Part shown: one piece after another, positions 30 through 38,643 of the stretch
How positions within the stretch are numbered: the stretch's first letter is position 1
Layout of the letters: every line of letters begins with the position of its first letter
Assembly (NCBI GenBank): GCA_964600295.1
Contig: CAZRIY010000004.1
Location: forward strand, 1-59,305
DNA length: 59,305 bases
Direction: 5' to 3'
DNA from: an uncultured Candidatus Saccharibacteria bacterium
GTDB lineage: Bacteria; Patescibacteriota; Saccharimonadia; CAZHVB01
Program-made: the position numbers and the translations under genes
The notes under the pieces: generated by a model
Databases searched by the model: none
What the model was told of the DNA's origin: nothing
What the model saw: the letters and a program-made list of their open reading frames with translations, nothing else

Positions 30-106
30 TGGAGGGCCTGGAGGGATTCGAACCCTCGACACGCGGCTTAAGAGGCCGCTGCTCTAACCAACTGAGCTAC
101 AGGCCC
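30..106 (-). tRNA. tRNA-Lys(CTT)
   Basis: Reverse complement GGGCCTGTAGCTCAGTTGGTTAGAGCAGCGGCCTCTTAAGCCGCGTGTCGAGGGTTCGAATCCCTCCAGGCCCTCCA; cloverleaf, CTT anticodon, encoded CCA. Confidence 0.96.
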
Positions 107-204: not shown

Positions 205-233
205 TTGACATTCAACGCTTATGGTTAAATAAT
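205..233 (+). promoter_or_regulatory. sigma70-type promoter driving the 240-630 unit
   Basis: Perfect TTGACA (205-210), 17 bp spacer, AATAAT (228-233); GCTTATG element in the spacer. Confidence 0.6.
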
Positions 234-239
234 GAAAGT

Positions 240-630
240 GTTTCACGTTGGCACGAGTCAACGACACAAGAAACAAAGAGCAGTAACCAGAAACCGAAAT
301 ACAAATCCAGAACCAAAGTTACAGCTCGGCACATTAAAAGCAGAGGGTTGCCTAGCCACGGATATCCTAAATTGCATATTTCGAAAGGCGATTCCGCCCC
401 TTAGATTGCGCCTTGCTGCGCAATGAGTCCCGGCGGTCCGCCAGAAAATGTTCCATTGAAGGTTCCACCAGGGGGCAACGAGGCGACCGGTAAGGTCAAC
501 GGATCAAACACATTTGACCAACCGTTCAGACCAACCGGTCGCCTCGTCCGCTCATCCACACCACCCAACTCTCTGCTTTTCTCTCTCGAAAACAAATAAT
601 TAAGCGACCCGAAGATCCGGGTCGCTTCTT
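240..630 (+). ncRNA. putative large structured non-coding RNA (unit A)
   Basis: 15-bp closing stem 336-350/566-580, perfect 14-bp stem 478-491/534-547, several small hairpins, promoter upstream and terminator hairpin at 602-630; no convincing ORF. Confidence 0.55.
602..630 (+). terminator. intrinsic terminator-like hairpin
   Basis: AAGCGACCCG-AAGATC-CGGGTCGCTT followed by CTT. Confidence 0.65.
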
Positions 631-646
631 AATGCTGACTGAAATT

Positions 647-667
647 AAAAAAACGGCCATTTGGCCG
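647..667 (-). terminator. Rho-independent terminator
   Basis: Minus strand CGGCC-AAAT-GGCCG followed by T7. Confidence 0.7.
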
Positions 668-1036
668 ATTAAATAGGGTGTGATGAGGCGGGGGCGGGAG
701 GTGTCGTGGTGATAGGTTTCTGACCGTGAGGTCAGTCCTTGTCTCCTCGACACTCTCCCGATTCCCGCCATCTGCAGGGATGATCTTTCCGGGTTGCCCC
801 TTCGGGATATCCCCACAATTGGTGGAGACGCTCTCCGATTTCCCGACCTACATCGAGCCGAAGCTCTTTGTAAGATCTCCTACTTAAAGATTTTGGCCGT
901 TGGCCTCTGTCTTTAAGAGTGACTAAGGTTGTCGGAAAAGATAGGTTTCGTGCGCACCATGATCTGGAACCGAGGTTCCTCGTCTAGATGTGCCTTATCG
1001 GCTATCAGCATTTTCATGTTCGCTCCACCAGGAGTG
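647..1036 (-). ncRNA. putative large structured non-coding RNA (unit B)
   Basis: Minus-strand promoter (1042-1071) and terminator (647-667) bracket many hairpins: long stem 687-769, C-UUCG-G and G-GCAA-C tetraloops on the minus strand, CTTAAAGA/TCTTTAAG stem. Confidence 0.55.
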
Positions 1037-1041
1037 AAATC

Positions 1042-1071
1042 AGTATACGCTTTGGTTAATTGTTGTTGCAA
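1042..1071 (-). promoter_or_regulatory. sigma70-type promoter for unit B
   Basis: TTGCAA (1071-1066), 18 bp spacer, TATACT (1047-1042). Confidence 0.55.
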
Positions 1072-1176
1072 GCATAAGCATTCAGGAATTTCTACAGGTT
1101 ATCCACAGAATTACAGATGACTGTAATTGTAGGCATATAAAATCTAGATTTTATTGACGCTTGGCGTTTATAATTT

Positions 1177-3541: not shown

Positions 3542-4840
3542 CTATTCGGTGGGTAGGGGAAAGCCTAGGGCAAGGGCTCTAATTTCATCTCCTAACTTGC
3601 GCAAGACTTTAGTATCATTATGTTTTTTGAGAGCTTTGTAAAGCCATTCAGCTAGTTGGATCATTTCAACTTCTTTCATACCGCGGGTGGTGATTGCTGG
3701 TGTACCTAGCCGAATACCGCTGGGGTCAAAGGGCGGGCGTGGATCATCAGGAATAACATTTTTGTTAACCGTTAAGCCAATTTTATCTAGCGCTGCTTCT
3801 GCCACTCCGCCACTGATGCCAAAGGATTTTTGGATATCAATCAGTATCAGGTGATTATCGGTACCGTTGGTAATTAGACGAAAGCCCCGATTCATTAGTT
3901 CCGTGGCCAGGGTTTTGGCGTTATTCAGAACTTGCTGGGCATAGATATTAAAAGCGGGGCGGGCAGCTTCGCCAAAGGCTACTGCCTTGGCCAAAATAAC
4001 GTTCATGTGCGGTCCACCCTGCAATCCGGGAAAAACCGCTCGATCGATTAGGGTTGGTAGGTTTCGTACTTTCTTGTCTGCAGCCTTGAGGGGATTAGTG
4101 GCTTGGCCTTGGGATAAAATTAAGCCACCGCGTGGTCCGCGCAAAGTTTTATGGGTGGTAGCAGTGGCGACTTGGAAGCCCGCCTGCAGGGGATTGGCCA
4201 AAACCCCTCCAGCAATTAGACCAGCCAAGTGGGCAATGTCGGCCATGGCCACCGCCCCTACTTCCTCGGCGATTGCAGCGAATTTGGCATAATCTAGCTC
4301 GCGCGGGTAGCTAGAGAAACCGGCCAAAATAATCTTGGGCTTATGCTGCTTGGCCAGGGCTCGAATTTGATCGTAGTCTAGCTCCCCGGTTTCTATATTC
4401 TTCATCCCGTAGCGGACAAAATTGTAGAGTTTGGCCGGTAGCGTTAAGGGGTGGCCGTGCGTCAGGTGCCCACCGTGCGATAGATCCATGGCCAAGATGG
4501 TATCGCCAAGCTCAGCCCATGCAGAGTAAACCGCCAGGTTAGCTGGAGCCCCGGATAATACCTGAACATTGGCGTGATCGGCGGCAAATAGCTTTTTTGC
4601 GCGGTCAATTGCCAATTGCTCGATTTGATCGGTATTAATCTGGCCTCCGTAGTAGCGTTTACCGGGATAGCCTTCGGCATATTTATTGGTAAATACCGTA
4701 CCCAAGGCCTCGAGGACTGCGGGGCTAACGTAGTTTTCGCTGGGGATTAATTCTAAGCCTTGGTTTTGCCGCTTGGTTTCGGCTTCTGCCAGCTTGGCCA
4801 GCTCAGGATCTTGACGAGCCAGATGTGAATAATCGGTCAT
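3542..4840 (-). CDS. glyA: serine hydroxymethyltransferase
   Basis: LIPSENY, NKYAEGYPGKRYYGG, TTHKTLRGPRGG PLP motif. Confidence 0.98.
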   Translation of the reverse strand: MTDYSHLARQDPELAKLAEAETKRQNQGLELIPSENYVSPAVLEALGTVFTNKYAEGYPGKRYYGGQINTDQIEQLAIDRAKKLFAADHANVQVLSGAPANLAVYSAWAELGDTILAMDLSHGGHLTHGHPLTLPAKLYNFVRYGMKNIETGELDYDQIRALAKQHKPKIILAGFSSYPRELDYAKFAAIAEEVGAVAMADIAHLAGLIAGGVLANPLQAGFQVATATTHKTLRGPRGGLILSQGQATNPLKAADKKVRNLPTLIDRAVFPGLQGGPHMNVILAKAVAFGEAARPAFNIYAQQVLNNAKTLATELMNRGFRLITNGTDNHLILIDIQKSFGISGGVAEAALDKIGLTVNKNVIPDDPRPPFDPSGIRLGTPAITTRGMKEVEMIQLAEWLYKALKKHNDTKVLRKLGDEIRALALGFPLPTE

Positions 4841-38566: not shown

Positions 38567-38643
38567 TGGAGGGCCTGGAGGGACTCGAACCCTCGACACG
38601 CGGCTTAAAAGGCCGCTGCTCTAACCAACTGAGCTACAGGCCC
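38567..38643 (-). tRNA. tRNA-Lys(TTT)
   Basis: Cloverleaf nearly identical to 30-106 but with TTT anticodon; encoded CCA. Confidence 0.96.

Follow-up and report, generated by a model that had tools for sequence, protein, structure and literature searches.

Two candidate RNA genes in an ORF-free interval beside tRNA-Lys

The left end of contig CAZRIY010000004.1, from an uncultured Candidatus Saccharibacteria bacterium (Patescibacteriota; assembly GCA_964600295.1), carries an interval without protein genes in which two convergent, structured non-coding RNA (ncRNA) genes, here called units A and B, are predicted. The window analyzed is the entire contig (C4 of this assembly; 59,305 nt), and positions given without a contig or locus name refer to it. 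The genome under study is a metagenome bin of 715 kb in 11 contigs, is 97% complete, and has a G+C content of ~49%. Open reading frames (ORFs) of at least 80 aa cover 93% of it, and the 1,070 nt between positions 107 and 1176 are without a credible ORF. The interval is flanked by tRNA-Lys(CTT) on the left and by a gene for a SIMPL/DUF541 protein on the right, which is the first credible gene and starts at 1177. The longest ORF within it (96 aa; 526–816, minus strand) spans both of the predicted terminators, and no convincing ORF was opened when the gap was translated with genetic code 25 or with TAG read as glutamine. A preliminary description, made from the sequence alone, had pointed to about 1 kb without a credible protein gene in a gene-dense genome, and this was borne out. 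The features considered below are as follows.

30–106, minus strand: tRNA-Lys(CTT), left neighbor (ARAGORN and Rfam)
205–233, plus strand: promoter of A; −35 TTGACA (205–210), spacer block GCTTATGGT (217–225), −10 AATAAT (228–233)
238–635, plus strand: unit A RNA, ~395 nt, ends set by promoter and terminator
238–327, plus strand: 5′ hairpins P1 (238–267) and P2 (278–327) of A with an A-rich linker between them (minimum free energy [MFE] helices)
336–350, plus strand: 5′ strand (AAAAGCAGAGGGTTG) of P3, the long-range helix of A, pairing with 566–580
360–462, plus strand: inner multi-hairpin domain of A, ~100 nt (MFE)
473–553, plus strand: long G+C-rich hairpin P5 of A, with a 14-bp perfect stem, 478–491/534–547 (predicted fold)
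566–584, plus strand: 3′ strand of P3 and invariant block CTCTGCTTTTCTCT (571–584), a 14-mer identical in the two genomes compared, then AAACAAATA
602–627, no strand assigned: hairpin AAGCGACCCGAAGATCCGGGTCGCTT, putative terminator of A and second terminator for read-through from B
647–667, minus strand: terminator of B, CGGCCAAATGGCCG followed by T7 (terminator scan, hairpin 654–667)
647–1036, minus strand: unit B RNA, ~390 nt, ends set by promoter and terminator
687–817, minus strand: 3′ module of B, with hairpin 817–773, long G+C-rich hairpin 769–687, and C/A-rich tail (predicted fold)
820–1030, minus strand: long-range helix of B, 1030–1023 with 827–820, enclosing sub-domains of ~67 and ~109 nt (predicted fold)
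1042–1071, minus strand: promoter of B, TTGCAA/18/TATACT, 9 of 12 consensus positions (promoter scan)
1091–1107, minus strand: DnaA-box-like pair upstream of the B promoter, TGTGGATAA (1107–1099, perfect), CC, then TGTAGA...

Promoters, terminators, and folding

The predicted promoter of A (TTGACA/17/AATAAT) matched the consensus at 11 of 12 positions in the promoter scan. By a reading of our own, TGG-TTAAAT at 222–230 may instead serve as an extended −10 element. Back-to-back terminators had been proposed at the meeting point of the two units. The hairpins at 602–627 and 654–667 are real, but the terminator scan lists both on the minus strand only; in that listing the 602–627 hairpin has 11 pairs and the tail AATTATTTGT, and its tail on the plus strand is CTTCTTAATG.

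Unit A (238–640, plus strand) folds with a z score of −6.75 and unit B (645–1036, minus strand) with −6.97, and none of 100 shuffled sequences was equally stable in either case. Both fold as strongly as the genome's own RNase P RNA and tmRNA: in our own control within this genome, z scores were −7.7 for A and −6.5 for B on their proposed strands, −5.9 for RNase P RNA, and −4.7 for tmRNA. Thirteen random 400-nt windows of the genome had a mean of −0.64 (standard deviation, 1.2) and a minimum of −2.8. Of seven other ORF-free gaps, five had values from −1.5 to +1.3; a tRNA-containing gap reached −3.4/−3.9, and one on another contig (C3:49932–50532) reached −3.2/−5.1. On their proposed strands, A and B are A-rich and U-poor. 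The folds agree with the preliminary description in giving two structured units of similar length (~395 and ~390 nt), each with small hairpins and one long GC-rich hairpin.

Counterparts of both units in the sister genome

The sole other genome of the family, likewise a metagenome bin, belongs to a sister genus and is 84% complete; its coordinates are those of locus L065 on contig C36. When it was searched with a 9-kb DNA query, contig C36 proved to carry the neighboring glyA block (69% DNA identity over one matched block compared), tRNA-Arg(TCG), and a tRNA-Lys truncated by the contig end. The stretch of ~1 kb that separates tRNA-Arg from a small ORF has no credible ORF, and it was by this synteny that counterparts of both units were located, after sequence searches had failed. 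As in the genome under study, the two units are convergent, here on a bidirectional terminator (L065 4030–4059). The B copy, on the plus strand, is ~445 nt long and has the promoter TTGCAT/17/TATACT (L065 3542–3570), and a hairpin followed by T7 occurs at the site matching the B terminator (L065 ~4001–4020). The A copy, on the minus strand, is ~367 nt long and has the promoter TTGACA/17/TATGGT (L065 4423–4395). Fold z scores of the copies are −8.93 for A and −5.61 for B.

Unit A has a plan common to both genomes, consisting of two 5′ hairpins, an A-rich linker, and a long-range helix that encloses a ~100-nt domain and a ~80-nt hairpin, and in both it ends with an unpaired pyrimidine-rich tail, AAACAAATA, and the terminator. 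The sister copy has its two hairpins and an AAACAAA-type linker in matching positions, with stems of different sequence. Its counterpart of P3 is AAAGCAGAGAACAAA/TTTGTTCTCTGCTTT. P3 is 15 bp long in both genomes and closes ~240 nt; the comparison gives nine invariant pairs, one one-sided change (G-U to A-U), and four consecutive two-sided changes that keep pairing (GGUUG/CAAC(U) to AACAA/UUGUU). We estimate the probability of the four two-sided changes arising by chance, roughly, at ~0.02. At the position of the inner domain, the sister copy has a 109-nt domain that shares the word CCTTAGA, and the helices of the two cannot be aligned with confidence. The P5 stem corresponds to CGAGGTGGTCGA/TCGGCCACCTCG, with three two-sided changes and one one-sided change (to U-G) over 12 pairs, a count that depends on the register chosen, MAFFT favoring another register.

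The CTCTGCTTTTCTCT 14-mer, with at most one mismatch, occurs in 102 of 401 genomes of the class, including the two compared here. At 30 inspected loci (28 in other genomes and the two loci themselves), a partner helix was seen in these two genomes only. Aligned with each other, the two A sequences reach z scores of 6.4 (local) and 6.0 (global), values attained by 0 of 200 shuffles; reverse-complement and cross-unit alignments, used as controls, gave −1.4 to 3.0. Structure-aware alignment of the A copies yields a joint fold of −57.7 kcal/mol, compared with −14.8 on average and −19.4 at the lowest for 12 shuffles and with −20 to −29 for the four cross pairs. The G-U pair of P3 in the genome under study and the U-G pair of P5 in its sister would be A-C mismatches on the opposite strand; since these pairs are workable on one strand only, they support the strands defined by the promoters. 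Among the properties generally looked for in an ncRNA gene, unit A thus has compensatory changes (four two-sided in P3 and three in P5, from two sequences and so with low power) and a conserved promoter and terminator of its own. The sequence comparison makes conservation of unit A as an RNA well supported.

The two A promoters have identical TTGACA and GCTTATGGT elements, separated in each by a 6-nt gap. The spacer block (217–225; L065 4403–4411, minus strand) is thus identical in two genera while the −10 hexamers differ. The 9-mer occurs eight times in the genome under study. Its role may be that of an operator, or it may belong to an extended −10 element (TGG-TAATAT/TGG-TTAAAT).

For unit B, the predicted folds of the two copies agree in general plan. 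The sister copy has a 7-bp long-range helix of unrelated sequence that encloses sub-domains of 72 and 119 nt, and in both genomes the 3′ part comprises a short hairpin, a ~80-nt G+C-rich hairpin with a 6-bp tip, a C/A-rich tail, and a small T7 terminator. Global alignment of the two B sequences gives a z score of 4.6 (0 of 200 shuffles). A covariance model of the B 3′ domain (R2) has its best match in the sister interval at the expected B site (11.9 bits, E = 0.0077 in 1,051 nt). The promoters are likewise similar (TTGCAA/18/TATACT and TTGCAT/17/TATACT). Like A, B has a conserved promoter and terminator of its own.

The strongest point for conservation of B, as judged from sequence, is the box pair upstream of its promoter. 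TGTGGATAA is a perfect match to what we take to be the DnaA-box consensus. In the sister genome, the pair is TGTGGATAA-AA-TGTGGATAT and lies 26 nt before the −35 element, compared with 27 nt in the genome under study. The latter genome has seven perfect DnaA boxes, two of them beside dnaA on another contig (C1), and the 1.1-kb gap has one perfect box and one with a single mismatch. The pattern of box plus promoter was found in two of 401 genomes of the class, and a reversed-pattern control was found in none. Overall, unit B is moderately supported as a conserved RNA, and its sequence and structure statistics are weak. An origin of replication (oriC) at this locus was considered and rejected, dnaA lying on contig C1 with two perfect boxes nearby.

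Coding potential

Each unit contains a short ORF. That of A encodes 58 aa (423–599) and stops 2 nt before the terminator hairpin; that of B encodes 34 aa and starts with an ATG at 1017, with GGTGGAG 5 nt upstream. The 58-aa translation and that of the 96-aa ORF had no relatives in the protein collection searched, and Pfam gave no family match among the three ORF translations scanned. The 34-aa ORF has no counterpart in the sister genome, and the two B copies share no ORF (best ORF-pair score, 24). For A, the ORFs of the two genomes (58 and 86 aa) have only the tail SLLFS in common, which is encoded by the 14-mer. Their starts differ, and so does the frame in which they read through the conserved P5 arm, the anchors lying 100 nt apart in one genome and 75 nt in the other. 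What the substitutions in P3 and P5 preserve is base pairing, not codons. On sequence comparison, neither A nor B has a conserved ORF.

Comparison with known RNA families

At the gathering threshold, the 4227 models of Rfam 15 matched only six tRNAs in the window. With the threshold relaxed to E ≤ 10, 11 weak matches to microRNA or terminator look-alikes appeared in 100–1250, all of them at least 30 bits below gathering; the top score was 21.3 bits and the lowest E-value 0.43 (a 21.2-bit match). The sister interval gave tRNAs and noise at E ≤ 1 and nothing for the unit copies. The preliminary description had been unable to match known families, and the Rfam check likewise found none for either unit. 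Its proposal of a pair of undescribed large ncRNAs gains support from this result together with the strong folds, the recurrence in the sister genome, and the lack of a conserved ORF.

A and B are ruled out as RNase P RNA or tmRNA, which the genome encodes at C1:38564–38932 (230.9 bits) and C1:30992–31387 (112.3 bits), respectively. The 6S RNA model (RF00013) had no match in the whole genome. Identity with the RNA of the signal recognition particle (SRP) is excluded, as the genome is without Ffh or FtsY and has no match to an SRP RNA model: models RF00169 and RF01854 each had no match in any of 31 genomes (this one and 30 relatives), and PF02978, PF00448, and TIGR00959, which represent the Ffh M domain, the SRP54-type GTPase including FtsY, and ffh, had none in this genome. 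Nor does the motif TKxDG, which we presume to mark SRP GTPases, occur in its six frames. SecY is present.

Apart from P-loop fragments, the SRP54-type GTPase domain is missing from all 31 genomes of the class that were searched, and at E ≤ 1e-10 it is missing from all 101 genomes of the phylum that were searched. One paper describes loss of the SRP in the candidate phyla radiation (CPR), namely of ffh and ffs in Parcubacteria (PMC4508563), and the absence of the SRP here extends a trait already known. In another, SRP genes carry APY09_ tags and are set against a host baseline; we take them to be host genes, uninformative for the RNAs of Saccharibacteria (PMC10768705).

Homologue searches and distribution

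BLASTN of positions 200–1080 found no homologue in 60 relatives, and BLASTN of 236–1040 against 400 genomes of the class gave only five matches of 20–27 nt with E-values of 0.003–0.008, as expected by chance; one of these was in the unpublished genome G244 and supports no claim made here. A covariance model built from the single A-core sequence (R1) recovered its own sequence alone in the genome under study and nothing in 149 genomes of the class, a weak negative, since R1 also missed the true sister copy. The comparison across relatives that the preliminary description had suggested came out divided, with no homologue found by BLASTN or R1 and the copies in the sister genome found through synteny. 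R1 and R2 had no match at E ≤ 0.1 in 57,882 bases made up of SIMPL-neighbor loci (two distant metagenome loci and eight loci of relatives) and 10 tRNA-Arg/tRNA-Lys intervals. The units had no match in phage and plasmid collections, and two exact words from them were absent from viral contigs. MAFFT alignments of the units disagree with the structures. Keyword searches of the literature found no description of such RNAs.

A helix-pattern scan of genome contigs returned 45 stretches, of which the only one from Saccharibacteria was the sister contig. Seven of the 45, matching by chance, came from Cloacimonadota (L103, L107, L113, L122, L126, L132, and L135), and four of these seven matched on both strands. 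They contain inverted repeats, AGAAAAGCAGAG...CTCTGCTTTTCT, spaced by ~230–255 nt, which may represent a small repeated element with no relation to units A and B.

Relationship between A and B

The preliminary description had suggested that the two units might form one structural class, partly on account of a word, CTCATC(C)ACACC, that follows the long hairpin in each. The word is present in both units and nowhere else in the genome, but it is not kept letter for letter in the sister genome. For the class itself there is at most a weak hint. A and B resemble each other in sequence no more than chance allows, 119 of 300 shuffles scoring at least as high. With R1, B obtains 5.1 bits (E = 0.18 in 3 kb), which is noise, and the topologies differ, the long hairpin lying within the long-range helix in A and outside it in B. 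The top match of R2 away from the B locus is the A 3′ domain (14.0 bits, E = 0.12 in 64 kb), and its second match in the sister interval is the A copy (8.7 bits, E = 0.065 in 1 kb). All four RNAs have an unpaired C/A-rich tract after the long hairpin, and they agree in overall base composition, with A and C about equally frequent, followed by G and then U. These similarities give a weak hint of a shared feature: A and B appear to be different RNAs with at most a loosely similar 3′ module. Complementarity between A and B, as would allow a duplex, is not above that of shuffles.

Genomic setting

Thirty loci around tRNA-Lys in relatives are without a comparable ORF-free gap. Across Saccharibacteria, the interval between tRNA-Arg(TCG) and tRNA-Lys(CTT) varies: in some genomes the two tRNAs are adjacent (<0.1 kb), and in all 10 other genomes of the class that were fetched (loci L178–L187) the interval measures 0.5–2.8 kb and is filled by unrelated ORFs. 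Units A and B therefore sit in a variable slot, bounded in the window by the features at 30–106 and 2289–2365. Between the genome under study and its sister, the surroundings of the units differ by an inversion and in the neighboring genes.

Two probable ncRNA genes and the alternatives

On the sequence evidence, we think it rather probable that A and B are two genuine functional ncRNA genes and represent two new, narrowly distributed families; our confidence is higher for A taken alone and lower for B. The gap would then consist of two independently transcribed structured-RNA genes of ~390 nt, belonging to families outside Rfam and, as sampled, distributed in one sparsely sampled family of Saccharibacteria (Patescibacteria).

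Several observations weigh against this interpretation. Only two genomes carry the units, both of them metagenome bins, and the covariation comes from ~7 two-sided changes. One sequencing run contains this DNA, probably that of the source sample, and no RNA run is listed. The inward-facing promoters of the preliminary description have exact coordinates (205–233, plus; 1071–1042, minus), but the scan alone puts such sites at the chance level, with two in 2.5 kb compared with 3.1 ± 1.6 in shuffles and no excess; they are credible because they are conserved in the sister genome, not from the scan counts. The 602–627 hairpin, read on the plus strand as the terminator of A, has a weaker T tail and is unlisted by the scan. 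The opposite strands also fold well (z scores of −4.8 for the minus strand of A and −6.1 for the plus strand of B), so that folding by itself does not determine the strand. Local alignment of the two B copies has a z score of only 1.5 (17 of 200 shuffles), their joint fold of −30.8 is not better than that of shuffles (minimum, −31.7), and MAFFT alignments of the 3′ domains show no common long hairpin. A trans-acting, protein-binding role and control by DnaA, as proposed below, are inferences. The slot that holds the units runs from <0.1 kb to 2.8 kb among genomes and is occupied by unrelated ORFs in 10 of 10 others, which represent other families, so that the units could be accessory cargo instead of serving core functions.

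This variability also speaks for a different account, to which we assign a low probability, that A and B are cargo of a tRNA-flanked slot and part or remnant of a mobile or defense-type cassette, not housekeeping RNAs. They might for example, with a similarly low probability, be guide or partner RNAs whose protein gene was lost or lies elsewhere. Such an origin would fit the differing neighbors and the inversion between the two genomes, as well as the self-contained nature of each unit, with its own promoter and terminator. It fits poorly with the lack of a tRNA-derived boundary repeat within 107–2288, of a match in phage or plasmid collections or, for two exact words, in viral contigs, and of a second copy in the genome. 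Nor do the units adjoin, in either genome, a gene for a recombinase, reverse transcriptase, or nuclease. The units have, moreover, stayed together with conserved promoters across two genera. We regard it as very unlikely that the conserved features act as DNA, for example as a DnaA-binding locus with flanking hairpins, with any transcripts being incidental or the fold signal arising as a by-product of G+C-rich palindromes. This explanation would accommodate the good folds of the opposite strands and the presence, in both genomes, of a perfect DnaA box followed after 2 nt by a second, box-like repeat. The G-U pairs of the conserved helices, however, work only in RNA of the proposed strands, the promoters and terminators are placed as for discrete transcripts, the 1.1 kb has only one perfect box and one with a mismatch, and the origin is probably on the other contig, where dnaA lies with two perfect boxes.

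Little probability attaches to the view that Rfam misses, in one unit or in both, a strongly diverged member of a known family such as 6S RNA, ROOL, GOLLD, OLE, raiA, or HEARO. No 6S RNA was found in the genome, which leaves that role unfilled, unit A combines a closing helix with a long hairpin inside it, and the large orphan RNAs GOLLD and ROOL are often near tRNA genes. Against it stand the best Rfam E-value of 0.43 in 100–1250 and the lack of any match to the sister copies at E ≤ 1. At ~390 nt, moreover, A and B are each twice as long as 6S RNA, and their predicted folds are multi-domain, unlike the 6S rod with its central bubble. RNase P RNA and tmRNA were found elsewhere with strong scores while SRP RNA is excluded. 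Least credible of all is a reading in which the units encode small proteins and carry long structured untranslated regions, or are what is left of decayed protein genes. The 34-aa ORF of B with its GGTGGAG, the 58-aa ORF of A, and the SLLFS end common to the A ORFs are what this idea has in its favor. The 58-aa and 96-aa translations, however, have no protein relatives, and no Pfam family matched; the 34-aa ORF of B has no counterpart in the sister genome, those of A differ in start and frame, and the P3 and P5 changes preserve pairs and not codons.

Proposed mode of action

If A and B are ncRNA genes, their products would be stable RNAs that work in trans and would most likely serve as protein scaffolds or decoys. 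A would probably be recognized at the invariant base of P3 together with the unpaired, pyrimidine/CU-rich tail CUUUUCUCU...AAACAAAUA, and in both RNAs another contact may lie in the unpaired C/A-rich tract that follows the long hairpin. B would probably be under the control of DnaA through the box pair 26–27 nt upstream of its −35 element, which would link the level of B to replication status. This mode of action rates much lower than the ncRNA-gene interpretation itself. We give a low probability to a more far-reaching proposal, in which each RNA would form the core of a lineage-specific ribonucleoprotein regulator in a minimal-genome epibiont, and B, switched by DnaA, would report replication or cell-cycle status to other processes. 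A CsrA-type sponge was also considered and rejected; GGA is not consistently enriched, with 11 occurrences against 6.5 expected in B of the genome under study and 6 against 7.5 in the sister copy.

Comparison with known systems

OLE, GOLLD, ROOL, and raiA-motif RNAs resemble A and B in being several hundred nucleotides long, multi-domain, free-standing, and without an ORF, and in having long-range helices; for them, too, function cannot be deduced from sequence. Those families have hundreds to thousands of representatives. A and B, in contrast, are known here from two genomes of one family, have no Rfam match at E ≤ 10, and show no sequence motifs in common with them. 6S RNA (RF00013) is also a free-standing, ORF-less gene of regulatory type in which a terminal helix closes the molecule. 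It is, however, a ~180-nt rod with a large central bubble, whereas A and B are about twice as long, have a branched predicted fold, and have no match to its model.

The arrangement of the two units recalls type I toxin-antitoxin pairs such as txpA/RatA of Bacillus subtilis, in which a toxin mRNA and an antitoxin RNA are convergent. In both cases, transcripts of a few hundred nucleotides have their 3′ ends at shared or adjacent terminators. Unlike such pairs, A and B encode no conserved ORF or hydrophobic peptide, and their complementarity does not exceed that of shuffles. The upstream region of B has a parallel in DnaA-controlled promoters such as the autoregulated one of dnaA: it has a perfect 9-mer box, a second repeat one helical turn away, and a fixed distance to the −35 element. 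It differs in that the product of B would be a structured RNA and not a protein and that the DnaA site is predicted from sequence. No DnaA-controlled RNA of the size and architecture of B was found described in keyword searches.

A and B probably add two candidates to the large orphan structured RNAs of bacteria. The genomes of Patescibacteria are among the smallest and densest in bacteria, and hardly anything is known of the non-coding RNAs they encode. Here ~0.8 kb of a 715-kb genome is spent on two strongly folded RNAs that are kept with their promoters across two genera; this cost in a minimal genome, together with the conservation, suggests a function worth its cost. A large structured RNA switched by DnaA, if true, would be a regulatory arrangement not found described, and the candidate link between B and DnaA gains value from the fact that regulation in these organisms is largely unexplored. 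The weight of these points is limited by a narrow distribution in two metagenome bins. For experiments, the invariant 14-nt block at the base of the covarying helix of A offers one handle, and the DnaA-box pair before B offers another as a testable regulator-target pair.

Additional observations

The genome has two near-identical tRNA-Lys genes, with anticodons CTT (30–106) and TTT (38567–38643), that are 97% alike. Contig C3 ends within a near-identical tRNA-Lys 3′ half (C3:59310–59351, corresponding to 30–71 of the window), and the sister contig likewise breaks within tRNA-Lys (L065 4865–4920). These assembly breaks, including the one to the left of tRNA-Lys(CTT), were probably caused by the near-identical tRNA-Lys genes.

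A 16-nt direct repeat, ATAATTTG(T/C)GGAAGTG, occurs at 1170–1185 and 2109–2124, on either side of a segment made up of the SIMPL gene and part of the ORF that follows it. In the sister genome, which is without the SIMPL gene, ATTTGTGGAAAAG directly follows tRNA-Arg (L065 3441–3453). The repeats may be the boundaries of an inserted gene unit.

The ORF-free gap at C3:49932–50532, ~600 nt long, folds with z scores of −5.1 on the minus strand and −3.2 on the plus strand. Rfam gave no match to it at E ≤ 0.01, and another structured RNA may be encoded there.

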